IMG/VR virus record: IMGVR_UViG_3300033073_001635
Coordinates: 49,341 to 113,340 of that record
Reading direction: 5' to 3' (one strand)
From: a virus
Lineage: Duplodnaviria > Caudoviricetes
Length of the DNA: 64,000 nucleotides
Positions 2,430-49,724 of the stretch are shown piece by piece (the first letter of the stretch is position 1; each line of letters begins with the position of its first letter). The position numbers were made by a program, and so were the translations under genes. Below the pieces are notes generated by a model. The model worked only from the letters and a program-made list of their open reading frames with translations. It ran no database searches and was not told where the DNA came from.

Positions 2430-2797
2430 AATATAACTCCTAAAGAACCTAAAGCAGTACCAACTTGCACACCTTTTTTTAGCATATCTAAACTAAAAAA
2501 TGCGCTAGGTGCTTGAGTTACTCCTGGTAGCATTCTATTAAATATAATTGGGTTTTCATAATGTAAGGGTCCTTTAATAGAATAGGTACCTAAAGTAATT
2601 GATTGTCCCGATGAAGGCTGCATATAGATGCCATTGTCAGACACTTCAATTAAATTTGTTTTATTCTGACTACCTGCAGTAAGTACAATATTATTCATTT
2701 CACATACTAAAGCAGCAGTACAAAATGAATTAAATTGAGCTTTTATTATTTTGTTTTGTGGCCCTACAAATACATTGCTCATATTAAAGGTCTCCAA
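2426..2797 (-). CDS. Putative baseplate spike-associated protein
   Basis: Short beta-strand-like segments (NLIEVSDNGIYMQ); position between hub and gp25-like gene. Confidence 0.35.
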   Translation of the reverse strand: METFNMSNVFVGPQNKIIKAQFNSFCTAALVCEMNNIVLTAGSQNKTNLIEVSDNGIYMQPSSGQSITLGTYSIKGPLHYENPIIFNRMLPGVTQAPSAFFSLDMLKKGVQVGTALGSLGVIL

Positions 2798-3300
2798 TTG
2801 AAGCCAATATTTTCACTAGCTTCTTGATTGTAAAACATTCTATCTTCTTTTCTAGATGAATGTCCAAACATATTCCCATAACTAATAGGAACATTTCTAT
2901 CTTCGTTTTCATAATAAGTTGTTTCATATGGTGGGTCAAAATTAATTACACCACCTTTAATAGAAAACTCATCATAACCATTACATTCAATAACAATTCT
3001 TCTTCCAATAATATTAAAATCAGATCCATACTGTTGTCTGATTTGATCATAGCTTAAACTTTTAACTTGTATAGAAATTATTCTTTGTAGTTTTTCTACA
3101 CCACAAATTACAAAAAAACCACCTTGATCAAACTTTTCATTTGGTAAAAACCTGCTAGATGTCTTATTTCCACTAATGATATCAATAATTAAAGCATGTA
3201 CAAAAACTTTCATATCCTTATTAAAGGAAGCTTTGAATATTTCTGAATGATTAACTGCTTTATTAAAATTAGATCTAATGCCTTTGATTTTCTGACTCAT
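2779..3300 (-). CDS. Hypothetical baseplate-region protein
   Basis: 173-aa ORF in the tightly packed operon. Confidence 0.5.
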   Translation of the reverse strand: MSQKIKGIRSNFNKAVNHSEIFKASFNKDMKVFVHALIIDIISGNKTSSRFLPNEKFDQGGFFVICGVEKLQRIISIQVKSLSYDQIRQQYGSDFNIIGRRIVIECNGYDEFSIKGGVINFDPPYETTYYENEDRNVPISYGNMFGHSSRKEDRMFYNQEASENIGFNWRPLI

Positions 3301-9300: not shown

Positions 9301-12300
9301 CTAAAGCCATTGTTGTTATAACTGGCATTGTTGAAACGAATAAAACTGTACCCAAAGCACCAAGCACAGCACTGCCAAATATAGAGTTATCTATAATTCT
9401 AGTAAGGCTTGCTTGATTTACTGTTTTCAATAACTTAGCTGTAAAACTTTTTGGATTATGATTTAAAAACAAATCTTTATTAGCAATATTTGGAGTTTGT
9501 TGTTTTAACTTCACATCCTCAACATCATCTTCGTAACTTTCTAAAGATAGACCAGTAATACTATAATATAAATTATTAAAATATAATGGCGTTACATTTA
9601 TTCCATAAAAATTAGAATTTATTCTTTGTAACTCTTTATTGATTTCAGTTTCGCTATCTAAATATACATATGGTTCTATTAACAAAACACTAGCTAGTAA
9701 ATGAAAATCACAAATCATTGAAAGTAATTTTTTTACTTTCAATTCTTCTTTTGCATTTGAAGTTTCTCTTTTAGTAAAAGTTGAAGCAGTTAATGGATCT
9801 AATATATAAATTTTATATTCTAAATCATATTCTGTTCTTTTAGATTCAACAACAGCATCTATTTTATTTTCTTTAAAATAACGTCTTAATACCTCCTCTG
9901 TAGCGGGGTCTCTTTCTTTATTTGTAATTTTATATTTTTCTACGAAGTCATTGTACTTTTCTGATTTTGATAAATCATCAATCGCTTCAACATCATAAAC
10001 ATAAACAGTTGATTCATTTGTTACATTAGAGCTCATTAATTTTTGCTTTATAGAATTTTCTAAATCAACAAATCTTTTTTCTTCATAATTTGTTCCAAAA
10101 AAAGAATCAACTGAATCTCTATTAAAAAGCTCATCTAGTTGTTTTAAAAATTTATCTTGTCTCAAGCTTTCATCATATAAATTGGCTTCTTTTGAAAAAT
10201 TAATTTTAGTATTTTGAATAAAATCTGAATCAACATCATTATCTAATTCGTCTACACCATTCTCATTTTCAACAGGATTTAAAGTAGTGTTAGTATCTGA
10301 TCCAATATTGATTTTATTAAATAAATTTTTAAATTGAGGATGTATTCCAGGATCAGATCCTCCGCCTAATAAAGTTATACTCTCAATAATGTTATTATCT
10401 AAGTAGTCTTTATTTAAATAATAATTTAAAAAATCAAAAGTGTGACCGGTATCTAAATTAGGATTATTTATAATTTCATATATTGTATTCTGTCCCTCAC
10501 TAGGATACTTATCTTTAAAAATATCAACTTTATTTGAACCAAAATTAATTCCATACTTACCATTTTTATCAGCAGACCAAAAATAAGAATTTTGATATTC
10601 AGGTGAATAATTCTCATCAGTTTTAAAAGAATTTATTTTTAAATTTCTTAAAGCAAAATATAATTCTTTTTCTTCTTCATTTAAATTAGAAAACTTTTTT
10701 TTATCAAACTCTTTTAATGCAGCTACTGTAGTATCGTTTTGGTCAGCATATTCTGTTAGTTTTGAATCATAACTTGATTGATCCAACATATTAGATCTTA
10801 AATCAATATGTACAAAACCGGTTTCAGATTTTTGACCACCCATTACTGTAGCGTATTCAAATTCTAAAGCAGGAGTGCTTCCTGGAAATCTAAAAGAATT
10901 TCTTTTTAAAATATCATTACCATATACTCCAATTCCAATTTTACTCTTATTATTTTCAGCAATTTGTTTAAGTCTACGAAAGATATGAATTACATTAAAA
11001 TTTGGCACTACAATATCTACTGCAGATCCAAAATAATGTTGAGAAAAAGTAGTTCTTGTATCTTCTTCTTGAGTTGTAAACCCACTAGTTATTTGAACAC
11101 CTTTAAATAATTCTTTAAACTGCTGCAAATAATCAACTAATGGATCTAGATATTCAGTTGCTAATTTATATAAATTAGTATTTACAACTTTTGAAATTCG
11201 TTTTTGACTAAGTAATGTTTTTAATTCTTCTTTTTTGTTAACATAACTTTTAAAAAAATCCCAAGATTTAAAATATTTACTTTGCCATTCAAAAACATTG
11301 TCATCAGTAAATTCTTGCACTATACCTTGTTTTAAATCAAAATTTCTAGAACTATAATTAGAATTATCACAATTCATTAAAGCATAATTAACAACATCGT
11401 TATATAAATTTTCGTTCTTTGCTGTTTTGTTAGTAGTTAATTCTTTTAATCTTTCTGAATCATATACATTGGTTTCACTTAAACGCATAGTATATGCAGA
11501 AGCTCCAGGATTAGATTCTAAAGTTCTATATTCAGTACTTTCAATACTGATTGGTTTCTTTACATTTATAAAGTAACTTTCCTTATCGTCTATGTTTTCT
11601 TTAATTAGATATTCTTCTTTAAAAGAACCAAATAGTCTTGTAATAAAAGAATCAACTAAGATGCCAGTACCATCTGGTACAAATTTATATTCTCTAGCAG
11701 TTCTAAGTGTTGTAGTATTTATTTCCTCTAAACGTTTTATTGCATTTGGAAGATCACTTGCAGAATCTTCCAAACCATTTGCATGCATGTTATTAGAAGC
11801 AATTAAATTTAATTGATAATTTGGCTCCATACTACTTAAAAATTGTGTAGTAGGATATGCTTGTCCTAATATTGGAATATTTGCTGTTAAAGAATTGATT
11901 CCACCAGAAACTGAAACTAAAACATTATCTTTTGTTTTAAAATCAGGTCCATCTTCAATAGTTAAAGGGAGTACTTTTGTCTTAGTAAATATATTACTTA
12001 CATAGTTTTTTTCCAACCATGGTTGATATGGCGATTCATTTGTTTCAGATCCATTTAAAAACGAATTCATTGTTTTGAATGTTTTTAAATCATCTTCTGT
12101 TAAATATTTTAGTGGCCATGCTTCTTCAACAACAGGCGTTGGTGTCTGAATTTCAGGTTTTGGTTCTGGTTTCGGTGGTTCAGGTGGAATTTCAGCGACA
12201 GGAGCTGGTTCTACTACTGGTGGAGGTACTGGTTCAGGTATTGGTTGAGGTGGAGGCGCAGGCAGTTCAGGAGTAGCATTTGCAGGTACAATCGCTTGAG

Positions 12301-13711
12301 GTTTTACTTCTTCTTTTTTTGTATAAGGTCTTAGTTGCAGATAATACCTTAAGGTATTATCTGCAAATTTATAACCAAATTTATCAAAATAAAGCCTAAT
12401 AAAAGGGGCTATTATTTTAAAGACTTCTTCCTCTTTTACTAATTTGTCTAAACCTTTTCCATAAATAGCAAATCCTTCTGGGGTACCTGAACTAAAACGT
12501 AAATTTATTTCATTTTTTACATTATCATAATGTACTAAAATGGAACTGTTAATAGTTACTTTATTAAAATTAAGAAATTGGAATTGCATGTTTTCATCTA
12601 TATTACCTTGTTCTAATTTTCTTAATTTTTCCAAATTAGTTGTAAGTCTTTCTTTAGTATCTGTTGAACTAGGATTTTCAATTAAAAATTTTTCAATAAA
12701 TTTAATAGATTCAGGATTTTTCTTTAAAGAAATAGAAGGTAGATAAACTTCATTGCCAGAATCGTAAAACTCAGAAACTTGAGCATCGTTAAAATTTTCT
12801 GCAAGAAAAGTATAAAAGGAATTCTCGTTAGCTATTTCTAAATTTTTTCTTGATTTTAAAGTACGTAAAGCATCATTTATTTTTTCTCTTACTTCTTCAG
12901 ATACAGATTCTCCTTTAAAACTTTCTACTTGATTTCCCATATCAATAAAAAAATCCATTTTCTCTTTAAATGGAGTATTATTTGGTTTTTTTATTTGACT
13001 ATAGAATTCTTTTATAAAAAAGAATTCAGTTTTAGAATATTTATAAAATATATCATATGTTTTCTCTGACATTACATAAAAATGATCGTTAATTATTTCG
13101 TAATACTGTCCCATAGGCGCAGTAAATTCATTTTTTCCAGGCTCTACTGCGCCTGGTCTGTCTCCTGGTCTTTTTTCTGCTAGCCAACGAAAATGACTTC
13201 TACCGTCAGTGAAAAAGAATATAAAACAAAAATTTTCTTTAATATACTTTTTATATTCTTCTGAATTGTTAAATCCTAAAGAATTAATTAATTCTTTAGT
13301 TGTATTACTATAAAAACGAGAATAAGTATCATCTAATAAATATAGGGTTAAAGGCTTATCTACTTTTTTTAAATTAATCGAAATTGGAGAATTAGAAATA
13401 TTATCAAAAAACCCACCATGTAGAATTTGAAATCCCTCTACACAAGGTGGACAGCCTGTACTACCTTCTGTAAGAAAAATTACTTTTTTTGTAGCTTTAC
13501 TATATCTTTTTAATGCGGTTGCAAATGCAGTAGCTTTATTTTTTAAAGCTTGTCTGACTTTTGGTACATTGTAATCATCTGTAGAATCCCCAATACCAAA
13601 ATACATTACTTCAGCATATTCGTCAGAAATCCCTAATCTCTCAATTGACATGTTTTGTGCAGCTGCATATTCTTTTGCAGTCATTAATCCTTTGATACCT
13701 AATTCATTCAT
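3308..13711 (-). CDS. Giant baseplate hub protein (gp27/gpD-like) with M15 peptidase domain and hydrophobic insertions
   Basis: Hub-like segments LRPGVSCQLRAGYS..LLSGKIADV and GEIIILGNPEINPYD..VEAVTHIFS..GFITEI; M15 Zn motifs SQHYFGSAVD (H892) and GFVHIDLR (H968); position upstream of spike/wedge genes. Confidence 0.7.
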   Translation of the reverse strand: MNELGIKGLMTAKEYAAAQNMSIERLGISDEYAEVMYFGIGDSTDDYNVPKVRQALKNKATAFATALKRYSKATKKVIFLTEGSTGCPPCVEGFQILHGGFFDNISNSPISINLKKVDKPLTLYLLDDTYSRFYSNTTKELINSLGFNNSEEYKKYIKENFCFIFFFTDGRSHFRWLAEKRPGDRPGAVEPGKNEFTAPMGQYYEIINDHFYVMSEKTYDIFYKYSKTEFFFIKEFYSQIKKPNNTPFKEKMDFFIDMGNQVESFKGESVSEEVREKINDALRTLKSRKNLEIANENSFYTFLAENFNDAQVSEFYDSGNEVYLPSISLKKNPESIKFIEKFLIENPSSTDTKERLTTNLEKLRKLEQGNIDENMQFQFLNFNKVTINSSILVHYDNVKNEINLRFSSGTPEGFAIYGKGLDKLVKEEEVFKIIAPFIRLYFDKFGYKFADNTLRYYLQLRPYTKKEEVKPQAIVPANATPELPAPPPQPIPEPVPPPVVEPAPVAEIPPEPPKPEPKPEIQTPTPVVEEAWPLKYLTEDDLKTFKTMNSFLNGSETNESPYQPWLEKNYVSNIFTKTKVLPLTIEDGPDFKTKDNVLVSVSGGINSLTANIPILGQAYPTTQFLSSMEPNYQLNLIASNNMHANGLEDSASDLPNAIKRLEEINTTTLRTAREYKFVPDGTGILVDSFITRLFGSFKEEYLIKENIDDKESYFINVKKPISIESTEYRTLESNPGASAYTMRLSETNVYDSERLKELTTNKTAKNENLYNDVVNYALMNCDNSNYSSRNFDLKQGIVQEFTDDNVFEWQSKYFKSWDFFKSYVNKKEELKTLLSQKRISKVVNTNLYKLATEYLDPLVDYLQQFKELFKGVQITSGFTTQEEDTRTTFSQHYFGSAVDIVVPNFNVIHIFRRLKQIAENNKSKIGIGVYGNDILKRNSFRFPGSTPALEFEYATVMGGQKSETGFVHIDLRSNMLDQSSYDSKLTEYADQNDTTVAALKEFDKKKFSNLNEEEKELYFALRNLKINSFKTDENYSPEYQNSYFWSADKNGKYGINFGSNKVDIFKDKYPSEGQNTIYEIINNPNLDTGHTFDFLNYYLNKDYLDNNIIESITLLGGGSDPGIHPQFKNLFNKINIGSDTNTTLNPVENENGVDELDNDVDSDFIQNTKINFSKEANLYDESLRQDKFLKQLDELFNRDSVDSFFGTNYEEKRFVDLENSIKQKLMSSNVTNESTVYVYDVEAIDDLSKSEKYNDFVEKYKITNKERDPATEEVLRRYFKENKIDAVVESKRTEYDLEYKIYILDPLTASTFTKRETSNAKEELKVKKLLSMICDFHLLASVLLIEPYVYLDSETEINKELQRINSNFYGINVTPLYFNNLYYSITGLSLESYEDDVEDVKLKQQTPNIANKDLFLNHNPKSFTAKLLKTVNQASLTRIIDNSIFGSAVLGALGTVLFVSTMPVITTMALVLATLAVLPVPLLAGLKNESIKNKRVFYGEDYGNIGNWINIVVLKQIILDQSGINKVSFDKNSGLSILSQIYNQIDYEESLSFGLNDFLERINNGEEVWDFSKDIVKQYLINNPIILKYYKTSIFFKEMNQGLSFSLSNIINQSYFEEGEIKEKNGLVNNDVIQVKFAEDWLKYILGFPFLKGTPFFKENHDIYFDAENKEVSFDYFSSKTEEANEIFSHTDNLGLITEEDYKKRKNELQDKKKKYEDDLALANENLTNLKNQIKQMKNDFIKNVKGGPLYNIKTENFNKTLEPLNTQVETYIINIEDIKKNLEQAKSDYNKIDSSLTIDEIFKQAKESYKNTELEIAYPSGEIISGKFSNTDWPTLYSQLSFISNDLPKEPKFEENKKNVIKTFKEKLTLTDNYIAISINEKDSMHELYNKIPYLKEEFLNNFDDYLNKTNESSFSISESFQFEDKIESLFDKQDYNEKDYDFSKENEDLKYLNLKDLFFNIPSLLKKEIVEEYKTHNDKTIAFLKLLLEEVIKELLSSELFKANLNISENENTSDLFDFGGDRNNYPDIDLPMDPAEINSNVNLNPGFFYYESDFNDKLLSDIDARANNILKKSLKFMNDLEKGFVTEDGKNITKGNASDNYIKDILIDTQDSSSSSYIIKGGSGDSFRELILNPNASVKITFERDSNVNLTANDIAFIDIKNLIENSESAQKLTTLNNKLKEIEDKTNAIDVAFGSRTGFLNEPLELLNFYKKYNEKSDSLFFGNSDTDNAIAGKLGIFDDADLSNKKQDISEVMKQSGRKLFEKQFKMQKAYPTFRLFLIEEDAIESDTYFVFDDFYSFSAVKDFTVYKSKKLAADTAIIKLQNISGVLDGTKLGVIRDVDYEMATNRIKEVEAEKKAEQSNTQVIESLVLRPGVSCQLRAGYSSNPKELTILLSGKIADVSWSSSGDMCEVVIQSFGVELEVRKYGSSDADSGVSELEFHTTHKLLGWCMFRNELKHFGRFKKERLFQTGINNSESKEIAVSKESYLGTPPGYSDSMFQFFQSNWGWFVLADVLFSVGTVFIGGAKGLVKEAVVEGAEAVAKSAAKEAAEAGAKEAAEATVTEATKAAAKSTAKGSFISKTAQYLASSMNIVDNVLTGTKWYSKGLLAPFRWAFGSGWNPAKNTLIVNSVLKDIAAGTATLADDAIEASVRATLEATAAGGRGAILTGVAKSFGFNIARSGTNLERLLTVSPKALLSGIQKATQQGILNQKVANALVKEMSTNFNLLYAGRSALEAVSLGVVKSAKFSLLALGIGASIDIISSVVSASTNYLVDLLNNTLNPYSEKIALSPQDDAIYAPHPDRYIKPINEVMSVRSKDLIKKTGIAFLNAFSMYSTEATAEKLQKDIILGRTLAMDKRMYASIGENIFKLKNHTIWEVFHEMSLRHPGWVYGARQYGNGLEYRMFFGLPNQRYFGTPLNNRTIYRMNDIIRAISNNDLASMRRLVGETANLVDDYLDITNVGQSLKAQGENINAPKIKIYKSILLNEWNRITEKRFIPFRNYHLVSSKFNLVANNIKGVNNDVINEIAVLFVNNSSTENPEYTQRIIRSHENIPEDQIHAKAVKYDNCKGFNSALRYGTSELLNAAKEMYAGEIIILGNPEINPYDVILLDDQYTEMYGPIEVEAVTHIFSMDTGFITEIKPNALVTANEGLTYPIINSVVMYDVGRELAEKSPFDFVEVVKKYRKNQDQSSKDQIKKRLKELVDKWFEKEVGAFEMFGLFPNTIQVGYSDLLKMKPEAQQKIKESIVEDLLKQIQTNNIILQAEILNPNASIDSLIDTSAITGLLSSAAAIALATTIKFRTTKLPIAFFSALALASANFNNVVANQLRSPDSLLANKLIPGDMLVSQVADGNLMQIFPLYKNNKPLIYAGYDKINTKRRIKNKFGNIFTDFSDAMETFNIMLKEYANKENIIYSEPNFVSEAIGTLSDAGQTLLPFKLPKGTLRGYMNSYTPDQLINKSLK

Positions 13712-13713
13712 TT

Positions 13714-14925
13714 TTAATTACCTTCTTCATTTGAAATTTTGATTAAAGCTTGAGCTATTTTCTTTTGATTTTCAAGAATTCTAATTTTTTTTTCTTTAGG
13801 ATCACTTATGACTTCTGTACCATTTAGAATTTCTAGTCTATAGTTTTTTAACACTTCACCTGGTAAATTCAAATAGTAATATTGATTATAATAGATTTTC
13901 ATATTTAAATCTTTTTCTAACATTTTTAAAATCAATTTTATTTTTATGTATTCAGGTAAATATGCAGAATGCAATCCTATTACTAAATTTTGAAAATTCT
14001 CCCCAACTAAACCAGATTCTAAGACTTTCATTTCTTCTTTATTAAAGATTGATTGATCAACGCAATTAATTCCAAAGTTCTCAGTCAAAGATTTAATTTG
14101 CAAATAATTGTAATATCTAACATATACGTTACTAAAATAAGGTTCTCTAACACTCATTGAAAAATTATATTTTTTTAAATTTCTATACATTGAAGTAAAA
14201 TATGTTTCTGATTCTTTTTTAGTAGAATTAGAAGTAGAATTTGTTTCTGTAGTTGCTTCTTGATTTCGTGTTTGTGTTGTTAAAGTATATCTTATTTGTG
14301 CTAATTTTTTAATATCAAAAACAGGGAAAACAAAACTAGAAAAATAAGTATCGCTTATGGGTATTAAAAGTGATTCTAATTCTTTTCGAAACATCAAATT
14401 AGGAGAATAAGGATAATAATTAAAATATTTTAAATCCAATTCCGCTTCAAAAGAAGAAACACCAGCTTGATAAGAACTAATTCTAAATCCGACTACAGTG
14501 CAAAACAAATTAGTAGGATTATTTTTATCAAATGCTAAATTAGGATCAATTTCTAAAATAGAATTTTTAATATAATCATTCTTTACCCATACAAAAGGAT
14601 TATTCCTTATCTGAATAATCAATCTATGTAACATTAAAATCATCTCTCTATTAAATAATAATTTAATTTGAATACCAACACTACTTCTACCAGAAACAAC
14701 TTTAGTGGTTGTCTTTGATCTTAATGTTTTATAACCCCAATTAAAATTATCTTTTTGAATTTGAATAGAAATTGGTGGAATAGGAAATAAAATATCATTT
14801 AAAATAAATCCTGTATTTTCTCCTAATTCTCGTAAATGATTACTTACTTCTGAAAAAACCATTTCTCCAGTATATTCAAAATAATCTCTATTAATAATTT
14901 CTTTATTTAAGTCTAAAACAGCCAA
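13714..14925 (-). CDS. Putative tail-tube initiator/baseplate protein (TTG start)
   Basis: FPIPPISIQI..YKTLRSKTT pattern resembling tube-initiator folds; synteny between the tape-measure region and the hub. Confidence 0.4.
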   Translation of the reverse strand: MAVLDLNKEIINRDYFEYTGEMVFSEVSNHLRELGENTGFILNDILFPIPPISIQIQKDNFNWGYKTLRSKTTTKVVSGRSSVGIQIKLLFNREMILMLHRLIIQIRNNPFVWVKNDYIKNSILEIDPNLAFDKNNPTNLFCTVVGFRISSYQAGVSSFEAELDLKYFNYYPYSPNLMFRKELESLLIPISDTYFSSFVFPVFDIKKLAQIRYTLTTQTRNQEATTETNSTSNSTKKESETYFTSMYRNLKKYNFSMSVREPYFSNVYVRYYNYLQIKSLTENFGINCVDQSIFNKEEMKVLESGLVGENFQNLVIGLHSAYLPEYIKIKLILKMLEKDLNMKIYYNQYYYLNLPGEVLKNYRLEILNGTEVISDPKEKKIRILENQKKIAQALIKISNEEGN

Positions 14926-14927
14926 AA

Positions 14928-17900
14928 TTATTCTCCCATAAGTTGATCAAGATAACCACCTGTTAATGGTCTACGATTATCATTGATCATGATACTTGAA
15001 CTACCTCCATTTTGCAAAGCAATCTTATTCATATAATTCGCTTCTTCAATATTTCTAACGTTTCCTTTAATTAAATATGATTGATTTCTTGCAAGCATTG
15101 TACTCCCAGGACTTTGAACTCTACCAACCATATCTTTATAAAAAGGTCTTTGCATAGAGTCTGGAGACATTGATACATCTGAATTGTAATTTTGAACTTG
15201 AGCTAATTCTCTATTTTTAATTTTCTCATTTACTCTTGTATCAGTAAAAATTTCTTCAGGTCGAAGTTCTTCAGTATCATAAGAAGAAGATAATAAATAT
15301 GATGCGCCAACTACTGCTGCAGTAGCAGCAGTCATCTTCATGTTTGATAAATTAGCAATATTATCACCAATCATATTTAAAACATTTGATTGTCTATTAC
15401 CAAGTAGGTTTTCAAATAAAGCTTGTTGTTCAGGAGTACTTAAACCTTGAGATCCAACCGCAGCTTCAAGCACATCAAAATTTCTAACCAACTTTAAATA
15501 ATCTTCATTTGTAAAACGTTTATTCTTACCTGCGCTCATTAAAGCGCCTAGCATATTGTCAGAAGCGTAAGGACTTAAATTATTTGCTTTTACAGTTTTA
15601 ATAATATTTCTGAGCCCTTCAAAAATATCATCAAGATTAAATGTAATTCTCTCTTTATTTAAACCTTCTGTATAAGCTGAAGCTAATGGTTCAGGCATAT
15701 TTTCTACACTAACATTTTTTACAATTAAATCATTTAAGAAATCGGTGTCTTTAAAAACAGTTCCTCTCATAAAGTTTTCAAAATCAGTAGTATCCCCAGT
15801 TTCAAAAGCTGTGTTCAAAGTTTTAGTAAATAGCTCGCCGATATTAGTAGCTAAATCAAGAGATTTAGATTTAATAACAACAGATTCTTGAGAAGCAGAA
15901 ATCAATAATTGTGCTGCTAAATCTGTTTTTCTAAAATCATTTAAATTCATATTTCCTTTAGCTAAATTATAAGCTGCACCAACTGCTACTTTTTTAACTG
16001 CAACGTCAACAGAACCAGTACCAGCTTTAAGAATTCTTTCTTTTGAAGATTCTGATTTTAATAAATCTTGATATGTAATATTTGCAACATCCATTCTTTC
16101 TGCAACTTTTGACATTGCTTTTTTAGCAATCTCCATATTTACAACCATCATGGCACCGGTTTTTTGCATCTCTCTTATATTTCTTTGTATCTGACCCTTG
16201 AATGCATTACTGGTTTTTTCATTATTTAAAATGATTTGATAGATATCACCGTCAAAGTCACCCACTGCAGCTCTAGATATATCTGTACGTACTTTTATAT
16301 CGAAAGTATTAGATGGATCTTTTGTATTTTCAAATTTAAAAGTAGTTTCAAATTCAGGATACACTGCTCTACCAGCACCCAAACCAGTAGCTCTTGTATA
16401 ATTCTGATCATATAGATCTACAGCTTCATTAATAATATCATCTAAACTATGATATTGTTTTTCTTCAGTTAAATCTATATTTGCTATTTTATTATCTATC
16501 TCTGATATTTTAACATTTTCTTCTTCTATAAAACCTTGTAATTTTTCAATTTTTTCATTTTGCTCTAAAGTTGTTAAATCCATATTTCTCGGTGAACGAA
16601 GAATTGGTTTATAAAGTAATCTTTGAGAATCACCTTGTTCAAAATCGTCTAATTTTTGCAAAAGATTGTCTTCATTATTTTTTACTTTTTCCAATAATTG
16701 TTCTTGTTTTGTACGTACATCATCATGCTCTACATAATATGCTTCATCTTCTTCATGATAAAAATCATCATAAATAAGTTCATCCATTTCTGTAAAATAA
16801 TTATGCGCACGAATAAAGTTCTTTAATAAATCTTTATTTACTTTTTTTACAGTTATTCTCTCTGGTTCATCAGTTGGTATATGTGTACCTGTTTCAGGAT
16901 CGTAATTAGTTTTATAAACAATTTCTGATTCACCAGTTTCTTGATTATATTTAGTTAAATTAATTTCTTCTTCTTCAGTAAAAGCTTCTAATCCTAAAAT
17001 TATATCCGATTTACCTAGAAAAGTTTCTGGTTGTCTAGAAGTAATTGGCATCCCCATATCATCAAGTGCATTAACGTATGTAGGTTTACCTTCTGAATCA
17101 AGTATCACATTTCCTTCAGTATCTATTGCTAGATTTTTAAGTTCTCCCTTTTTTATTATATTACCATCAGTATCATACTCATCAAAATCAGAAGCTAATT
17201 CTTCATAATAGAAATTTGCACTAGTTTTTCGACTTAGACCATTATTTTCTAATTCATCAATTGATGAATCAATATTAAATTTTTCTCGTCTAGCTTCTTT
17301 TGCTTTTTCTTGTAAAGTAGCTAGTTTCTCTTCTTCTTCTTTAATTAACTGAGCATTTTTATTAATGCGCCCTACTTTATATTTTGTTCTTTCTTCTGCT
17401 TCGTATTTAGATATATCTTCATCTAATTCTTCTAAAGTGCTGTATTGTTTGCTTTCGTCATGATAAGTAGGTTTTGTTTTATCAGGTTTTCCATCGGGTC
17501 CTAATTCATAACCTTTGATTATTTTTACTTTAGAAAGTGCTTTCTTTTGTTTTTCACCTAAAGCCTCTTCTACTTTATTCTCTAAATGATTTTTATAAAA
17601 CTCTTTTTGATCATCATCTAACTCTTCAAAAGGTTTCATTAATCGAGTAGCAGATATTTTACCAAAAGTTGTTTGATCTGGATTCTGTTTTAAATTATCT
17701 TGAAAAGCTTTAATTAAAGCTTTGTCTTCGTCTGAATCTGTAATATTTCTAACAAATTTACCTTCATCATCAACAACATGATAATCATATTCATCACTAA
17801 AAAACGATTGAAGAAAATCTTTACGAGCTTGATAAATTTCTTGTTCTTCCCGTATGAGCATTTTAGGAATTATAGATTGTGCATAATATAACATTGAATT

Positions 17901-20900
17901 TACAAAGTTATTTGCACCTTTTGTTTTTCCTTGAATCATTGATTCTACAAATTGTTTTTTTAAAGTAAATTCTTGAATTTTTGCTTCAGAATTACTTGTA
18001 TTAGTTATTTGATCTTGGTATTTACCTTCTTTTAGATTCTCTAATAGATCAAAAAGCATTGAAGTTGCATGAAAATGATTTGTGGTTGGAACATCTGGAT
18101 CTTCCATTAATGTTTTTACAAAAGAAAACAAACTTTCAATCGCTTTCTTCTTTTCTTGTTTATGTAATTTTGAGAATGGTATCAATTTTCCATTCTCATC
18201 ATAAGTCATTGCTGTAAAATTATTTGATACATCACGCCTAAGATAATCCGAAGTAAACAATAATTCAGCAAAATCATCTTTGACTTCATGTAAAAATCTA
18301 GGCAATTCTAATAAATCTAATTGATCAGTATCAACTCCTAAAGTTCTATTTTGTTGTAAACCAAAATCTTGCAATGCAAAAATATCACTAATAGCTTGGC
18401 TATTTATTTCAGTAGGACTTATTGGACGCTTTAAATTTAAATTTTCTTTTAATGATTCTCGATACAGTTTAGAATCATTTAAAAATCTATTTAATCCTTT
18501 TTGTATGACATCTTCAGCTAGTGCAGGAGAATATCCAAAATGAGCATATGCTTCTTGTAATGTTTTGATTTCTTTATTAATACTACTAGCTTTTTCATTC
18601 ATTTTTTTATAATTAAAAATTTTAAAAAATGCTTTGTAAATAGGATTATCATTTAAATCTGAATGTTCGGTAGGATCACTACTTAATTGTTGAATATAAT
18701 TTTCTAAATAAGTATATACTGTTTTGCTATTTACACTTACTTGTTTATTTTTGTCAGAAATATATTTTACAATAGTTTTATTAGGATCATTAGGGTCTGC
18801 GTAATCAATTAAATTTCCATTCTCATCAATATTTTCAATATTATATTTTATATAATTAAACCCAGAATAAGTTCTTTCCTTGCCGTTTCTAGTTACAGTT
18901 TTTGATTCCCTATCAAAAGTTATGATTTTTCTAATTTTGTTACCTTCAGAGTCTTTTAGAAAATCAGATCCATCATGTTCATAAAAAACTTTTTGAGCAT
19001 CATCATCTAAAGAATCTATAAATGGTATAAATCTTTTAGCAACTCTAGCACGACCAAGTCCTTTGTTTTCAAGCTGTGTTCTTTCTTCAAAACTTAAATC
19101 GGAATTATTCATCTCATATAAGAAATCAAATAAATTTAATCTTGCTTTTTTATTCTTAAAAAAAGCATTAGCTTCATCTGATTGCATGGTATCTTTCATG
19201 CTTTCAAATACTTTATTAAACTCTTCTATTTTTGTTCTATTGTAAAATTCATGACTTCCAAAAGTTTCAAGAATCTCTTTATTTGTAATAGGAAAATCAG
19301 GATGTATGATTGTTAAATTTAAAAATTTCTCAGTTTGGGTTTTATAAACAGGTTTACCAAACTTATCAAGCATAGGCTTTCCTTTATTTTTTCCACTTTG
19401 ATGTAATACTTCGATTTGACTTAAAATTTCCTCTTCATGTCCACCAAAAGAATTAATAATTACTTTTTGAAAATCACGTTGTTTATTTAGTTTCTCTAAA
19501 TTACTTTTACTACGTTTACTTTGCGTCAAAAGTAATTTCAATCTATGAGATTGAAGATCAATTTCTCTATAATTTTTAATTATAGCTTCTTCATAAGTAT
19601 TGTCATATCCATATCCTCTATAATATCTATCTAAAGCATCAGTTCTTTTTATTTGATCTCCAACATTTTCAAAAGAAGTCCCTGTACTATCTAGTATCAT
19701 ATTAGGATTCAAACTGTTATAAGCATATCTAGAATCCTTACCTAATAACCTGCCTGCTTGAAGTCTTCGATTCCTATCATTTTTGATATCTTTTATATTA
19801 GAAGATTTTTGTTTATAATAATTTAAAAACCCTTTTCCTACTCTATCTACTGATTCTTCAACATTAGTATCTTTATTTATTCTAGTATAAGAAAAATTAC
19901 CTTTAAACATTTCACTTCTTTGTTGTCGTAAAGTTTGAATGAAATCTTGTTTTTGTTGTATATTCCCAGCTAAACGTTCTTGCTTTTGTTGCTTTTGATT
20001 TGAAAAGAATCTTGCTTTTGCTATTCTTTCTTGAAGATTTTCATAACTTGAAATTAGATTAGAATTTAAAGTATTTTCAATACCTTTTACATTTCTTTGA
20101 TATGCAGTTTGTAAATTAAAAATTCTTTCATTTAAATTAGAAACGTTACTTTCTATTTTATTTCTTTTATTAGTTAAATATTCCATTGTAGTTTTTTGAA
20201 AATCAAACGATAAATCTTTAAAAATACCAGTTTTGTTTAATTGATTTAAAACATTTAAAGTTTTAAAATTTAAAAAAGAAAAGTTATTTCCAGAATCGGC
20301 TGCTGATTGTATTGATTGATCAATGTAATTAATAACATCTTCGCCGCCATTCTGAATTATCTTATCTCTAAATGCACTGTTATTACCCATAAATTCAGAT
20401 AAAGATGATAAGAATATTTGCCCTTTAGTATTATAATTCAACACATCAGAATAATGAGATTCAGGTAGATTCTCCCCAATATATTTATACATATCAATAT
20501 TTAAAGCAATGTGAGACATACCTAGTTGTGGATTACGAAAATTTATACCCGAAATACCTTGAGGTTTAAAACTTCCATTTTCTAAACTATTTACTATTCT
20601 CATAGTTCCATCTGAAATTTGCAAAACATCCTCTTCCATACCAAATAAAAACTTTTTATATAGTTCTCGTTTTTCTGTTGGATCTTGTGCATTAAACGTT
20701 TTACTAGCATACATAAATGCTTGCGTATCCAAAAACATATTATAACCATTGGATTCAATAAAAGCTGCATTCATTTTTTGAAGAATTTTAGCATTATCTA
20801 AATCATCGCTTACAAATCTAGTAATTTGATCTTTTTCAGGATCACCTAAACGAACACCCTTACCTTCTAACGTTGCAGAACCAGACATTCTACCAGCTAA

Positions 20901-23900
20901 AATCTGTCGTTGCATACCCCCTAACATGTGTTGTAATTGTTTTACATGATACATTGCTTGATTTACTTTATTTGTTTGATCAACTTCTTCAGTTGAAGTA
21001 GATGCTTCTCTTAAAAAAGCAAAAATATCATTTACTTTTCTATATAATTCAGATTCAATTTTTAAATCTTTTTGATTACTTTTAATTTCAACACCAGAAA
21101 CAACATCTAAAACATTGCTTAAAGGCACTACAATTTCAGTTTTAGTTTCGCCAATTTGTTTTAAAAAGCTTTGATATGCAGCAGTATTTATATTTTCATT
21201 ACCTTCAACACCTCTAAGAAACATTTGTTGAATATCCATAACAAAGCCCATGGCTTGAGGATTTAATTCTTGTTGTTCTTTTAAAAAATTACTTAAAGCG
21301 GTAGCTGAATCAATATCAACATTTGCTCTTAAAAACTTTTTAGTAAATTCTTCATCGGCTCTAAACAAATAACCTTGACCTACAAAATCATCAATTGAAT
21401 GTTTCAAAGCACCTGCATCCATACTGGGATGCAATGACTGCCCCATTAATAGCAATGGTGTCATTGCTTGAGCTTTTTCAGCAACACCAGATTGTTTTGA
21501 AAATAATTCAGCCATATATTCTGCTGCTTCATCTTCATTCATTTGAAACATACCCATTAAATTACCCATTACAAAGTTAGCAAAACGAGGTTCTACTCTA
21601 GCCATTCTATCTTTGTTAATAGTAGATTGTGTACCAGCAAATGTAGACATTGCACCAATAAAAAATCCTCTTTCAGCAGTTTCAAAAACTACTTTTTGTT
21701 GCTCAGCAGTTAATCTTGTATTAGCTAAAAGACCTTTTAATTGATCTTTAAAAGCAACGGCTTTTTTACCAGGTTCAGTTGCTGGTTCTTTTAAATTATG
21801 GTACGCAGGAATTAACAAGTTTCCTAAAACTTCAGGAGTTACTTGTTGAGCTGTTGCGCCTGATGCAGTAGGTAATTCAGCATTATCAGCAATTAAATTA
21901 GAAAAAGTTTCAATGATATTTTCTGCTACAATCTTTTGATATTTAGGTGCATGCTGTTTTACCTTTGTATCCATTTCAGCAGCTTCAATTTTTCCTTGCA
22001 TATTAAAAACATTAGATTCAATAAAATCATCAGCATAACCTAACATTTTTAAAGAACCATAAAGTAAAGAAGACAAAAATTGTGGGCCCTTTGTAACAAC
22101 GTCCATACCTGCTAACATTGTACTTTCAATTTTACCACCAAATGTTTTCATATAAGTATTTTCAAAAAAACGACTAGCTTCTTGCATTGCAGCTTCTCTA
22201 TTTATAAATTTTCCAGTAACTGGATCTTTTTTATATAAAGCCTGCGCTAAAACATTTTTCATACCACCTTCATCAAGTATTTGTTCTTCACCAAAGAAAA
22301 CACCCTTAACAGCTTCTGAAAATATCTTACCTTCATGACTACCATAAACTTCACCAGCAATACTAAACATACCAGTTCTTTCAGTATTAACATTGGTATT
22401 CATTTTTAACTTCAAACCCATCATGCCTTTTTGTTTTTTTATCAAAGTAGGCATGTTATCTTTAAAACCTAAAACTAGATTTCCATCTTTATCTCCATAA
22501 TTTTTAAAAAAAGTTTCTAATTCACTTCCAAACAAATTAACTTCTTCACCAGCTAATATCTTTTGAAAAACATCAGATTCATAAATACTTAGATTAGTCA
22601 TCCCCTTAGTATATTGAAAAGATTTTTGTAAAGGTTCTGATACTAAATGCATACCACCTCTATATTGCATTGCATCTGCCAAACCTAATCTTTGACCTTT
22701 TTTAGCATTACTATTGAAATCTATAATTACACCAGTATTTGCACCTACTAAATCTAAATTTTGAAATTCTTTACCAACTACTAATAAATCAGCACCTTTA
22801 GTTGCAGATGTTTTAATAGAACCAGTTCTACCAAAACTTAAAGATTGCATTCCTCTTTGCATATCTTCAAAGGTTTCAAATTTAGTATTTGCAGGAAAAT
22901 AACCAAGCATAGCTTCTGGTTTAGCAAATAACTGAGCAATACGTGCAGAACCAGGTAATAAAGATTGATCTTTAATACCATGAGTTCTAGCAATATTATA
23001 AGGTATCACTGCAGGATTAGAAACGTTTTGACGTCCAAGAATTGCATTTGGATCAAGTATTACAGCTTGTTGTTCAAAAGAAGTGCTCTTTAATTCCTTT
23101 CTAATTGTACCTGCTTGACCTTGTGCAGGACCAAAAATACCAATATTTAAAGATACTAATTCATTTAAATCTACAGGAAATTGACCACCTGTTTTACCTC
23201 TATTAAAAAAATAAGCAGTATTTGACATTATTTGAATGCCGTGCTTTTGTTGAATACCAGCATAACCAAAATTCATTTGACCATGCGTAGGGTAATATTG
23301 AGTTAAACCAGAAAGAACTTCCATAAAAGAATTTCTTTCAGCTTGATTCATATAATGAATGTCTTCTGGAGAATAAGTTTTTAATAAATTAATTGCAAAA
23401 TCTTCAAAAGAAGATTTAGGCATTTTTTTTGCAAAAATATTTCTAGCAATTTTTTGTTTTTCAGCAAGATTCGCACCCTTACTAACTTCAGCAAAATCTG
23501 CTGCATCAAAATAATGATTATGTGCAACCTTTGCATTTCCGTAATCACTAGATAATCTTACATATCTTCCATGTGTACCTTCAGCAGCCATTAAAGGAAT
23601 TATTAATGGTTGTTTTGAAGATCTATTATGAGTAGAACTTATTCTAGCATAAACACCATATGCATCTTCATTAGCTTCTTTTATAATATCAAAAGAAACT
23701 TTAAAATTAGGATTATTATTTCCCAATCTCAAATGATCACTAATTATATTAAATCTATTTAGAACAGTGTTCTTTACTTCGTTACTTTTACCTTTAAAAA
23801 TACTCCATAGCTGATCATCTTGTAAAGATGATGCAGTTAAATTTTGTTTATGATAAATTGTATTCACATTCTTTTGCGCACTAAAAGTTTCGAATGGATT

Positions 23901-24596
23901 AGTGATAGTTACATTTCCACCATTATTAGTTCTTCGAGAGCTAGTAGATATTAAATGTGCAACACTAGAATTTTTTTGATGTAAACTAACATATTTTTCT
24001 TCGAGCGTTTTATTACTTCTAATTGAATCTAAAAAACCTGCTATATCTGCTTTGTCAGCATCACTCATTCTAGAAGAATCTTCAATTGCACCTCGAACCT
24101 TTGTTATTAATTTAGCTTTAGCTTCTTCATCTAAAGCTAAATCAGGATCATTAACCATATCTAATATAACTGATAAATGACTAATTCTTTGATTTTCTTT
24201 TGCAGCTAAAATTTCATCTAATTTTGATCGAGCATCTACAGTAGCCATTTCATCAAATAAATTAAGTGTAACTTCTTTTGCTTTCTCTTTTGCTAAAGCA
24301 TTTCTAGCTTGATAATCACTAATTGATCTATCTCTAATAGCTTTACCAATTTTTCTAGTAGGTAATGCAGTGTCTTCCTTTATCCCACTAGAATTCATAA
24401 AATTAGTTAAATTTCTAACACCAGGAATAGGGTTCTTCATATTAGGATTATCATTTGCAAATCCTAAGTAACCTGCACCTAAAACAAAAGAAGCACCACC
24501 AATAGTTTTTAAAACATCAAAACTATTTCTTGCAAAAGCTCTACGTTCTTCTGTGTCTTTTTTATAAACATTATAAATTAAACTTGGATTTGTCAT
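14928..24596 (-). CDS. Putative single-chain two-barrel (DPBB) RNA polymerase, probably virion-associated
   Basis: Catalytic GDFDGD (D2780-D2784, nt 16245-16259), FRNPQL RxP motif (R1354), beta-like lysine pair GKIFSEAVKG (K757/K764); located in the tail operon. Confidence 0.7.
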   Translation of the reverse strand: MTNPSLIYNVYKKDTEERRAFARNSFDVLKTIGGASFVLGAGYLGFANDNPNMKNPIPGVRNLTNFMNSSGIKEDTALPTRKIGKAIRDRSISDYQARNALAKEKAKEVTLNLFDEMATVDARSKLDEILAAKENQRISHLSVILDMVNDPDLALDEEAKAKLITKVRGAIEDSSRMSDADKADIAGFLDSIRSNKTLEEKYVSLHQKNSSVAHLISTSSRRTNNGGNVTITNPFETFSAQKNVNTIYHKQNLTASSLQDDQLWSIFKGKSNEVKNTVLNRFNIISDHLRLGNNNPNFKVSFDIIKEANEDAYGVYARISSTHNRSSKQPLIIPLMAAEGTHGRYVRLSSDYGNAKVAHNHYFDAADFAEVSKGANLAEKQKIARNIFAKKMPKSSFEDFAINLLKTYSPEDIHYMNQAERNSFMEVLSGLTQYYPTHGQMNFGYAGIQQKHGIQIMSNTAYFFNRGKTGGQFPVDLNELVSLNIGIFGPAQGQAGTIRKELKSTSFEQQAVILDPNAILGRQNVSNPAVIPYNIARTHGIKDQSLLPGSARIAQLFAKPEAMLGYFPANTKFETFEDMQRGMQSLSFGRTGSIKTSATKGADLLVVGKEFQNLDLVGANTGVIIDFNSNAKKGQRLGLADAMQYRGGMHLVSEPLQKSFQYTKGMTNLSIYESDVFQKILAGEEVNLFGSELETFFKNYGDKDGNLVLGFKDNMPTLIKKQKGMMGLKLKMNTNVNTERTGMFSIAGEVYGSHEGKIFSEAVKGVFFGEEQILDEGGMKNVLAQALYKKDPVTGKFINREAAMQEASRFFENTYMKTFGGKIESTMLAGMDVVTKGPQFLSSLLYGSLKMLGYADDFIESNVFNMQGKIEAAEMDTKVKQHAPKYQKIVAENIIETFSNLIADNAELPTASGATAQQVTPEVLGNLLIPAYHNLKEPATEPGKKAVAFKDQLKGLLANTRLTAEQQKVVFETAERGFFIGAMSTFAGTQSTINKDRMARVEPRFANFVMGNLMGMFQMNEDEAAEYMAELFSKQSGVAEKAQAMTPLLLMGQSLHPSMDAGALKHSIDDFVGQGYLFRADEEFTKKFLRANVDIDSATALSNFLKEQQELNPQAMGFVMDIQQMFLRGVEGNENINTAAYQSFLKQIGETKTEIVVPLSNVLDVVSGVEIKSNQKDLKIESELYRKVNDIFAFLREASTSTEEVDQTNKVNQAMYHVKQLQHMLGGMQRQILAGRMSGSATLEGKGVRLGDPEKDQITRFVSDDLDNAKILQKMNAAFIESNGYNMFLDTQAFMYASKTFNAQDPTEKRELYKKFLFGMEEDVLQISDGTMRIVNSLENGSFKPQGISGINFRNPQLGMSHIALNIDMYKYIGENLPESHYSDVLNYNTKGQIFLSSLSEFMGNNSAFRDKIIQNGGEDVINYIDQSIQSAADSGNNFSFLNFKTLNVLNQLNKTGIFKDLSFDFQKTTMEYLTNKRNKIESNVSNLNERIFNLQTAYQRNVKGIENTLNSNLISSYENLQERIAKARFFSNQKQQKQERLAGNIQQKQDFIQTLRQQRSEMFKGNFSYTRINKDTNVEESVDRVGKGFLNYYKQKSSNIKDIKNDRNRRLQAGRLLGKDSRYAYNSLNPNMILDSTGTSFENVGDQIKRTDALDRYYRGYGYDNTYEEAIIKNYREIDLQSHRLKLLLTQSKRSKSNLEKLNKQRDFQKVIINSFGGHEEEILSQIEVLHQSGKNKGKPMLDKFGKPVYKTQTEKFLNLTIIHPDFPITNKEILETFGSHEFYNRTKIEEFNKVFESMKDTMQSDEANAFFKNKKARLNLFDFLYEMNNSDLSFEERTQLENKGLGRARVAKRFIPFIDSLDDDAQKVFYEHDGSDFLKDSEGNKIRKIITFDRESKTVTRNGKERTYSGFNYIKYNIENIDENGNLIDYADPNDPNKTIVKYISDKNKQVSVNSKTVYTYLENYIQQLSSDPTEHSDLNDNPIYKAFFKIFNYKKMNEKASSINKEIKTLQEAYAHFGYSPALAEDVIQKGLNRFLNDSKLYRESLKENLNLKRPISPTEINSQAISDIFALQDFGLQQNRTLGVDTDQLDLLELPRFLHEVKDDFAELLFTSDYLRRDVSNNFTAMTYDENGKLIPFSKLHKQEKKKAIESLFSFVKTLMEDPDVPTTNHFHATSMLFDLLENLKEGKYQDQITNTSNSEAKIQEFTLKKQFVESMIQGKTKGANNFVNSMLYYAQSIIPKMLIREEQEIYQARKDFLQSFFSDEYDYHVVDDEGKFVRNITDSDEDKALIKAFQDNLKQNPDQTTFGKISATRLMKPFEELDDDQKEFYKNHLENKVEEALGEKQKKALSKVKIIKGYELGPDGKPDKTKPTYHDESKQYSTLEELDEDISKYEAEERTKYKVGRINKNAQLIKEEEEKLATLQEKAKEARREKFNIDSSIDELENNGLSRKTSANFYYEELASDFDEYDTDGNIIKKGELKNLAIDTEGNVILDSEGKPTYVNALDDMGMPITSRQPETFLGKSDIILGLEAFTEEEEINLTKYNQETGESEIVYKTNYDPETGTHIPTDEPERITVKKVNKDLLKNFIRAHNYFTEMDELIYDDFYHEEDEAYYVEHDDVRTKQEQLLEKVKNNEDNLLQKLDDFEQGDSQRLLYKPILRSPRNMDLTTLEQNEKIEKLQGFIEEENVKISEIDNKIANIDLTEEKQYHSLDDIINEAVDLYDQNYTRATGLGAGRAVYPEFETTFKFENTKDPSNTFDIKVRTDISRAAVGDFDGDIYQIILNNEKTSNAFKGQIQRNIREMQKTGAMMVVNMEIAKKAMSKVAERMDVANITYQDLLKSESSKERILKAGTGSVDVAVKKVAVGAAYNLAKGNMNLNDFRKTDLAAQLLISASQESVVIKSKSLDLATNIGELFTKTLNTAFETGDTTDFENFMRGTVFKDTDFLNDLIVKNVSVENMPEPLASAYTEGLNKERITFNLDDIFEGLRNIIKTVKANNLSPYASDNMLGALMSAGKNKRFTNEDYLKLVRNFDVLEAAVGSQGLSTPEQQALFENLLGNRQSNVLNMIGDNIANLSNMKMTAATAAVVGASYLLSSSYDTEELRPEEIFTDTRVNEKIKNRELAQVQNYNSDVSMSPDSMQRPFYKDMVGRVQSPGSTMLARNQSYLIKGNVRNIEEANYMNKIALQNGGSSSIMINDNRRPLTGGYLDQLMGE

Positions 24597-24599
24597 TTA

Positions 24600-49324: not shown

Positions 49325-49724
49325 TTACCAATCTTTCTAAATACTTTAATTTTAAAGAAATATTATTTTTAATTTGTGCAGGAGTTAATCCAGGACAATA
49401 AACACGCACCCAATAGCTTATTGGATTCATAGTATTTAAAACAGAAACTACACATTCCTGATTTATAAAAACTTTATTCCATTCGAATTCTGTAGGTTGA
49501 ATTTCTGTTTGTTTTATTTTTACAGACCAACCAGATTCAGTTAAAATATTATTAGAAATTAAATCTGGGAATACAGCAGATAAAACTACGTTTTCATAAT
49601 ATTTATTTGAATCATCATTTTGTAAATATAATTTAAATTCATAACTGCCTCCGGTATAACCATTGTGTGTTGTTTTGAACTCAATTACAGAATTCAAATC
49701 AGCATCTAAAACATTTAAACTCAT
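49317..49724 (-). CDS. Hypothetical beta-rich structural protein
   Basis: Beta-strand pattern (YWVRVYCPG); operon coupling. Confidence 0.5.
   Translation of the reverse strand: MSLNVLDADLNSVIEFKTTHNGYTGGSYEFKLYLQNDDSNKYYENVVLSAVFPDLISNNILTESGWSVKIKQTEIQPTEFEWNKVFINQECVVSVLNTMNPISYWVRVYCPGLTPAQIKNNISLKLKYLERLVNA

Follow-up and report, generated by a model that had tools for sequence, protein, structure and literature searches.

The window analysed here comprises 64,000 nucleotides (positions 49,341 to 113,340) of the IMG/VR record IMGVR_UViG_3300033073_001635, a linear virus record (Duplodnaviria; Caudoviricetes) of 113,340 bp with an estimated completeness of 69%. The guanine-plus-cytosine (GC) content of the window is 25–35% and nearly all of its genes lie on the minus strand. 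Within the block of tail genes a single open reading frame (ORF) encodes P0001, a protein of 3,222 amino acids (aa) that is predicted to be a divergent single-chain RNA polymerase with two double-psi beta-barrels (DPBBs). The catalytic barrel of this polymerase is probably split by a translated insert of ∼1,300 residues that is retained as an accessory arm. The features of the gene are as follows, with positions given in the numbering of the window.

14928..24596, minus strand: whole ORF of P0001 (3,222 aa), a divergent single-chain two-barrel RNA polymerase-like protein, within the tail-gene block
22302..22328, minus strand: KIFSEAVKG (K757...K764), putative two-lysine motif of the beta-like barrel (DPBB-B), assigned from family conservation
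20481..20894, minus strand: first half of the predicted catalytic barrel (DPBB-A), aa 1235–1372, with strand 1 (GRMSGSATLEGKGVRL), helical inserts, the R1354-N-P strand and the strand SHIALNIDMY, placed from model and alignment
20529..20537, minus strand: R1354-N1355-P1356 (FRNP, aa 1353–1356), putative counterpart of beta-prime N-R425-A-P from motif and strand order
20370..20480, minus strand: conserved entry helices of the family-wide helical subdomain, aa 1373–1409 (V1385, L1399 and F1409 are invariant in profile A1)
16497..20369, minus strand: hypervariable insertion proper, aa 1410–2700, ∼1,290 aa, mostly helical and rich in K/E/D/N, each end having heptad-like segments
16389..16496, minus strand: conserved exit helix of the subdomain, aa 2701–2736 (Y2729 and Y2733 are invariant)
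16221..16388, minus strand: second half of the predicted DPBB-A, aa 2737–2792, comprising GLGAG and two strands, then a short helix and the DFDGD loop and, last, the strand IYQIIL, placed from the model
16245..16259, minus strand: D2780-F-D-G-D2784 (GDFDGD, aa 2779–2784), putative metal-binding triad, each Asp present in 96 of 96 homologues
15858..15890, minus strand: QESVVIKSKSL, family-wide ExxxIKxKK helix behind the barrel, a candidate bridge helix by inferred assignment

A first-pass annotation of the window, made from the letters alone, had placed R1354 (FRNPQL) and D2780 (DFDGD) 1,426 residues apart, and this distance was confirmed from the ORF translation. Conservation was counted after 96 full-length family members had been aligned with MAFFT. 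The Arg of RxP is present in 95 of these and the Pro in all 96; every Asp of DxDxD is found in all 96, and the residue before the last Asp is Gly in 80. Since the RxP and Asp residues are conserved in 95–96 of the 96 homologues, the RNP and DFDGD motifs are evidently not chance occurrences. Further upstream, the two lysines of KxFSxxxKG are conserved in 94 and 93 of the 96 members, and the motif shares its pattern with K-MAGRHGN-KG of Escherichia coli beta (rpoB). In the ExxxIKxKK helix, profiles A2 and A3 show little or no variation at E889, K894 and K896. By motif and strand order R1354 would be equivalent to R425 of E. coli beta-prime at the residue level, an assignment for which the sequence alignment is non-significant.

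Some variation was seen around the triad. The residue before the first Asp is L, A, Q or W, not G, in about one third of the members (LDQDGD, ADMDGD), and 13 of the 96 carry Ala in place of Gly (DxDAD), the Asp triad itself being without variation. The GD-x-DGD-x-Y/W pattern of the family resembles the motif of the RNA-dependent RNA polymerases (RDRs).

The fold was assessed using an AlphaFold2 model of aa 542–1741 of P0009, an insertion-free homologue of 1,741 aa that a metagenome scan had brought up at locus L005. The model was calculated from a 45-sequence alignment and had a mean predicted local distance difference test (pLDDT) score of 77.5 and a predicted template-modelling (pTM) score of 0.78; residue numbers given for it are in model numbering. 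A Foldseek search of the PDB returned only polymerase subunits as top matches, but these were weak [expectation value (E) 0.014 or worse]. When the Foldseek candidates were aligned with VIA-align, QDE-1 matched model residues 1–1040 with Z = 10.4–10.6, Rpb2/beta-type chains matched residues 1–324 only (Z ∼ 8) and Rpb1/beta-prime-type chains matched residues 384–1030 (Z ∼ 8); all 50 listed entries were two-barrel polymerases. A second, Foldseek-independent structure search of 48,161 chains gave matches to QDE-1 (Z = 10.4), P74-26 gp62 (a non-virion polymerase of the P23-45 group; Z = 9.3), maize RDR2 (Z = 9.1), vaccinia Rpo132 (Z = 8.3), Pol II Rpb1 (Z = 7.8), P23-45 gp96 (Z = 6.7 over ∼300 residues) and phi14:2 gp66 (Z = 5.0 over 441 residues), and the first 18 entries were without exception two-barrel polymerases. 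Model residues 1–324, which hold the two-lysine motif, align to Rpb2/beta/Rpo132 chains with Z = 7.6–8.4, while the long helices 793–892 carry ExxxIKxKK and Rpb1/beta-prime chains align up to model residue 1030. P0001 is matched in three blocks by the family profile A3 (E = 9e-65, 8e-52 and 5e-9) and the fold assignment therefore carries over to P0001, which on the strength of this model is a divergent single-chain two-barrel RNA polymerase of the cellular/QDE-1 type with all of its catalytic signatures intact. The catalytic residues are intact in all homologues that carry the insertion, and because they are all invariant in these lineages the polymerase is presumed to be active.

The P0009 model also located the insertion site. 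The catalytic barrel is built from a long strand (538–552), a strand at 593–596, helices, a strand (647–653) ending in R653-H-P and a strand at 662–669; a helical subdomain (670–735, pLDDT ∼90) then stands between the barrel halves and is followed by strands 736–748 and 752–757, a short helix (760–763), the D767/D769/D771 loop and strand 772–777. The part behind the subdomain is a beta-beta-alpha-beta unit, one half of a double-psi barrel, and matches E. coli beta-prime motif for motif. At least eight isolated double-psi barrels, among them two designed symmetric DPBB proteins and the N-domains of VAT, CDC48, PEX1, NSF and Sec18, align over 85 of ∼86 residues to model residues 541–783, the root-mean-square deviation (rmsd) being 2.3–2.9 Å. 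This span contains RHP (653–655), the insertion site (670–735) and DxDGD (767–771). As the isolated barrels align across it, a complete barrel needs strands from both sides of the subdomain, including the strand that ends in RxP.

The same elements could be traced in P0001, aa 1231–1250 of which align to strand 1 of the catalytic barrel in the P0009 model. Residues 782–1147 of P0009 align to 910–1336 of P0001 and residues 1271–1740 to 2737–3222, and P0009 holds ∼124 residues in place of ∼1,400 in P0001. The exit helix of P0001 corresponds to helix 712–729 in the P0009 model and to helix 1043–1062 in the model of the L001 homologue described below. The connector between the barrel halves consists of ∼6 residues (TLHRLG) in E. 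coli beta-prime; it is helical and ∼65–80 residues long in this phage family, and ∼1,380 residues long in P0001, where it includes the hypervariable aa 1410–2700. Judged from the models, this connector is where the insertion sits, with one pseudo-symmetric half of the catalytic barrel on either side. The statement in the first-pass annotation that the two motifs lie only a few tens of residues apart in cellular beta-prime was accurate (35 residues from R425 to D460 in E. coli). Its counter-proposal, a complete barrel formed locally around DFDGD with a nearer Arg such as R2743 of GRAVYP, did not hold: R2743 is replaced by Q or F in close homologues, and the segment behind the insertion gives a beta-beta-alpha-beta half barrel only, which excludes a complete local barrel.

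An assignment of FRNPQLG and AGRMSGS...GKG to the beta-like barrel, with the ∼1,400 aa as an inter-barrel linker, was considered and rejected. The two-lysine motif of the beta-like barrel lies at aa 757–765, Rpb2-type chains align only to model residues 1–324 and the catalytic barrel has the AGRMSG strand as its strand 1.

The extent of the family was examined by sequence searches. A word-indexed protein search gave seven homologues of P0001 (2,819–3,283 aa), in which FRNP and GDFD[GA]D are invariant and spaced by 1,057–1,510 residues, the stretch between them being only 7–20% identical, with many insertions and deletions. An exhaustive HMMER search with P0009 gave 150 metagenomic representatives, 138 of them at E < 1e-10 and mostly of 1,650–1,830 aa. 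When insertion length was compared across homologues, the normal spacing from RxP to DxDGD was 109–150 aa, far below the 1,426 of P0001. Insertion-free homologues thus hold both motifs in one domain, and the very large non-spliced insertion within the DFDGD barrel that had been proposed initially is supported. A tree of the conserved core was calculated with FastTree and rooted at the midpoint, and the order of growth events is taken from this one tree. Spacings of 109–150 aa occupy most clades; the large spacings are nested in one clade, of which one branch shows 250, 363, 683 and then 854/857 residues and the sister branch 225 and then 1,056–1,509, the latter being the group of P0001. An independent expansion (P0086, 423 aa) lies outside this clade. 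The helical subdomain between the barrel halves appears from these sequences to have expanded stepwise in the P0001 lineage.

The composition of the insert is, as had been noticed, unlike that of its flanks: K plus E amounts to 19.8% and A plus G to 8.1% over aa 1410–2720, compared with ∼14% and 15–16%. Its description as coiled-coil-like stood only in part; heptad periodicity is enriched about threefold, but it occurs in only 4% of the sequence windows scanned, mainly at aa 1414–1514 and 2583–2625. Long Pro/Gly-free runs adjoin the heptad segments at both ends of the insert, and the sole PDB sequence matches of P0001 are coiled-coil proteins, at aa 1427–1515. The edges of the insert are formed by helices that are common to insertion-free relatives.

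The insert contains no stop in 1,291 codons, where its composition (27% GC) predicts stops at 9.7% of codons (P ∼ 1e-57), and the other five frames over the same region contain 73–222 stops. The reading frame is unbroken across eight homologues. No Rfam family reached its gathering score in an intron scan of window positions 14000–25500, and no further ORF of at least 80 aa overlaps the insert region. The reported lack of intein splice ends was upheld: P0001 contains no cysteine (and a single tryptophan in its 3,222 aa), HN[CST] does not occur in aa 1340–2790 and no Hint Pfam domain was found at E up to 1. As neither an Rfam intron, an internal ORF, Cys, HN[CST] nor a Hint domain is present, the sequence indicates that translation runs through the insert and that splicing does not remove it.

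A BLAST comparison of the insert with itself gave no internal repeats, and BLAST against the inserts of other clades gave nothing past the first 200–300 aa (P0004, P0005). A search of the ESM Atlas with the insert yielded no usable match, and no Pfam domain was found in ten of the 11 inserts scanned. The sole recognisable domain is a helix-hairpin-helix (HhH; HHH_3) at aa 1648–1688 of P0142, which has a 683-aa insert (E = 7.5e-7, 29.6 bits, cut-off 27).

Comparison of close relatives gave contrasting identities along the chain. P0003 is 90–92% identical to P0001 in the flanks and 53% identical over aa 1401–2730, with sharp edges and 23 gapped positions; P0002 is ∼91% identical to P0001 over aa 1–1250 and ∼98–100% thereafter. 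From these contrasts the insert behaves like a module of its own, one that changes fast or is exchanged, and the sequences point to mosaic evolution in which breakpoints lie at the edges of the insert and near aa 1250.

At locus L004, apparently the same contig as its twin L001, positions 16553–16555 read TGA where L001 has TCA (Ser), ∼160 codons before DFDGD. The TGA divides the polymerase gene into ORFs of 2,184 and 545 aa; it could stem from an error of assembly or mark a natural variant in two pieces.

The insert was modelled in the intact homologue from L001 (aa 1240–2439), which has a 1,025-aa insert, with both barrel halves included. The barrel flanks were predicted with pLDDT 70–88 and helices 221–314 and 855–911 with ∼74–85, and the remainder was mostly helical at low confidence. 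The antiparallel arm of SMC-like JetC can be superposed on the two long helices (Z = 10.2, rmsd 5.7 Å, 134 residues). An insertion in a loop requires an out-and-back geometry in any case, and the insert is most likely, albeit at low confidence, to form an out-and-back antiparallel helical stalk.

The genes around P0001 are those of a tail module. Upstream in transcription order lie a major-head-protein-like gene, a gene of 852 aa with a PHROG 'tail sheath' match (E = 3e-16), two tube-sized genes and P0010, a 1,494-aa protein rich in hydrophobic segments; downstream follow a gene of 403 aa and a hub-like protein of 3,467 aa for which the lysin and peptidase matches are weak. The neighbouring giant genes and the gene between P0001 and the hub are as follows.

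24600–29084, minus strand: P0010, giant upstream protein of 1,494 aa with several membrane-like hydrophobic segments
13714–14925, minus strand: 403-aa protein, matches the long PHROG 20474 ('endolysin')
3308–13711, minus strand: hub-like protein of 3,467 aa, matches the long PHROG 20474 ('endolysin')

Because of the PHROG sheath match in the window, the phage appears to have a contractile tail. The locus of the insertion-free P0009 has the same order of giant upstream gene, polymerase gene and giant hub gene, and a giant gene of 1,367–1,675 aa precedes the polymerase gene at all three loci inspected. In the window this upstream protein, P0010, may be the true tape measure. From its gene position, and by analogy with P23-45 gp96, phi14:2 gp66 and N4 vRNAP, the polymerase would be delivered by the virion.

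In the explanation that is considered probable, the chain would run from the beta-like barrel (two Lys, aa ∼757–764) through a connector to the beta-prime-like catalytic barrel, and the latter would be assembled from distant halves at aa ∼1235–1372 (with R1354-N-P) and aa ∼2737–2792 (with D2780-F-D-G-D2784). An antiparallel helical stalk would exit the barrel and bear a large, fast-evolving and mainly helical distal mass; the ends of the stalk would meet, allowing the barrel to close. Retention of the insert in the mature enzyme as an accessory arm is favoured: the arm would project from the barrel and serve as a tether for DNA or a partner, or as a spacer. The best guess as to its role is that in early transcription it would provide DNA, or a partner, with a tether or handle; the HhH motif of P0142 is the sole direct hint of this.

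Several observations weigh against this explanation. P0001 gave no Pfam, PHROG or PDB (phmmer) sequence match on the polymerase core, a PDB hmmsearch with profiles A1 and A2 returned only coiled-coil and designed-repeat noise, and the Pfam families PF05183 and PF00623 gave nothing useful on the core when searched against the genome; Pfam, PHROGs and PDB phmmer/hmmsearch thus tie the family to no known polymerase. Alignment of A3 with E. coli beta-prime aa 330–500 by hhalign covered 18 columns around DFDGD (NADFDGD) at a non-significant probability of 2.5%. The fold rests on the predicted model of a relative that is 22% identical, and Z values of 8–10 are moderate. The L001 model is poor (pLDDT 60.8, pTM 0.39); structure searches with it are dominated by long helices and are silent on barrel closure, and helical matches at Z ∼ 10 are within the background of the tool for long helices. 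The rapid divergence of the insert and the near-absence of Pfam domains would also be expected of a functionless, tolerated expansion.

Such an expansion is unlikely but is to be reckoned with first among the alternatives. The insert would then be the product of runaway growth of a permissive surface loop, tolerated as the barrel is left undisturbed, which fits the stepwise growth and the independent expansion in P0086, the very rapid divergence, the lack of repeats, the ten of 11 scanned inserts without a recognisable domain and the empty ESM Atlas search. It fits poorly with an open frame of 1,000–1,500 codons that is kept in every member of an adenine- and thymine-rich lineage (P ∼ 1e-57 in the present case) and with the real cost of nearly 4 kb of packaged DNA; moreover, the stalk helices are predicted with moderate confidence and one insert has gained an HhH motif.

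Ranked next, and likewise doubtful, is a role of the insert as a tail ruler or lumen spacer, in which a long helical hairpin would set or fill the length of the tail and part the barrel halves until ejection and refolding. A tape-measure-like segment, a regulatory one and one removed by proteolysis had been put forward in the first-pass annotation as possibilities. The gene lies between putative sheath and tube genes and a giant hub gene, the usual slot of a tape measure, and P23-45 gp96 provides a precedent for a virion polymerase fused to a tape measure (PMC10770324). However, most members (1,650–1,830 aa) occupy the same slot without the insert, and the slot therefore does not require it; the second giant gene upstream at the three loci inspected could itself be the ruler. 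The length of the insert is nearly constant in close relatives (1,425 versus 1,429 aa) despite 53% identity, as is typical of rulers, but homologues that are 74% identical differ in length by 31 aa. The lack of Cys in P0001 agrees with a ruler, while the restriction of heptad periodicity to ∼4% of the sequence windows does not. A fuller version, in which the excursion of ∼1,300 residues acts as a ruler or tether that parts the barrel halves in the tail and ejection joins the halves and so activates the polymerase, is given slightly less credence.

It is improbable that the insert is cleaved or excised after translation, by the prohead protease or another, to leave a two-chain enzyme with halves that associate in trans. 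Cellular enzymes already form their active site from separate chains, and the in-frame TGA of L004 would, if real, yield such a two-piece protein; this TGA, however, differs by a single base in one assembly and is possibly erroneous, and the insert edges carry no conserved motif beyond the helices shared with insertion-free relatives. That the protein is a tape-measure or ejection protein with fortuitous FRNP and DFDGD motifs is very unlikely: the Pfam, PHROG and PDB sequence searches were empty and relatives in BFVD are labelled 'minor tail protein', but 93–96 of the 96 homologues retain the two motifs and both lysines unchanged, and all 50 VIA-align entries and the first 18 of the independent search are two-barrel polymerases.

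The split-barrel polymerase can be compared with several characterized systems. In Thermus phage P23-45, gp96 joins a virion RNA polymerase to the tape measure in one protein (Chaban et al., 2024; PMC10770324; PDB entries 8H2M and 8H2N). It resembles P0001 as a single-chain two-barrel polymerase with DFDGD that is encoded in the tail-gene block and hidden from sequence searches, and the two match in fold with Z = 6.7. The polymerase of gp96 is a compact N-terminal module (DFDGD at 779–783) followed by the ruler, whereas the extra mass of P0001 lies inside the catalytic barrel; no metallopeptidase domain was found in P0001, and the tail of the P0001 phage is apparently contractile. No sequence match between gp96 and P0001 was obtained in the PDB searches and the fold match lies below those of QDE-1 and gp62. 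QDE-1 and the eukaryotic RDRs (PDB entries 2J7N, 7Y7P and 7W84) and P74-26 gp62 (PDB entry 8F5M) are the best structural matches; they span both barrels and have the same one-chain order of beta-like barrel, connector and catalytic barrel. They differ in that identity is ∼8–10%, no profile match to the Pfam RdRP family PF05183 was found and in none of them is the RxP strand separated from the catalytic loop by a large insert.

Inserts in the beta-prime barrel have been described: bacteria have a helical bundle, archaea and eukaryotes a RAGNYA domain, and jumbo-phage enzymes unique inserts (Iyer et al., 2021; PMC7824862). As in these and in SI3 of E. coli beta-prime, extra domains are grafted into loops of the catalytic subunit and the barrel is kept. 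The published cellular inserts precede the RxP strand (the E. coli beta-prime helical bundle lies at aa ∼370–415) and comprise tens to a few hundred residues, whereas the insert of the P0001 group follows RxP, sits in the connector between the halves and is hypervariable, with 1,000–1,500 residues. The crAss-like phage protein phi14:2 gp66 (PDB entry 6VR4) is likewise a single-chain two-barrel polymerase of giant size that is packaged in the virion and in which large regions are unassigned; it differs in its weak fold match, its motif DFDID, its phage type (podovirus) and the position of its extra regions, which flank the core instead of splitting the barrel. A crAss-like virion polymerase was also considered as the identity of P0001 and was rejected in view of the PHROG sheath match, the weak fold match to gp66 and the lack of any tblastn match of P0001 among 50,697 phage records.

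Double-psi barrels are ancient, and their small fold is tightly packed; no element of cellular transcription is more conserved than the barrel that bears DxDGD. The present family is a natural series of enzymes in which the link between the barrel halves is very permissive, the same barrel being closed across 110, 225, 363, 683, 855 and up to 1,500 residues. Together these spacings constitute a ready test set for barrel folding, for the design of split or circularly permuted polymerases and for the effects of accessory arms. A large unannotated polymerase-like family, of which no account, nor of the insert, was found in open-access papers and preprints, is also added to the tail-gene blocks of uncultured phages. 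Delivery by a tailed phage of a two-barrel polymerase of its own has to date been proven for one Thermus phage, and the present family takes that idea further.

Distant relatives of the polymerase family may also be carried by cultured phages. BFVD models labelled 'uncharacterized' or 'minor tail protein' match the polymerase model with E = 1e-5 to 2e-9 and come from Acinetobacter phage ME3 and the Microcystis phages Ma-LMM01 and MaMV-DC. ORF80 of Ma-LMM01 (AB231700.1, 57700–68388), a hypothetical protein of 3,562 aa from this cyanophage, gave a weak match to the family profile on the DxDGD region (E = 0.0014).

Further observations concern the neighbouring proteins. The 3,467-aa hub-like protein has a sub-threshold Peptidase_M15_3 match at aa 857–917, and its counterpart at L005 (3,035 aa) also has lysozyme-type PHROG matches. 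The C-terminus of P0010 (...NDDRQNEINAFINSYRSGY) recalls the conserved C-terminus of the polymerase (...INDNRRPLTGGYLDQLMGE), and the two proteins may share a common C-terminal docking or ejection signal.

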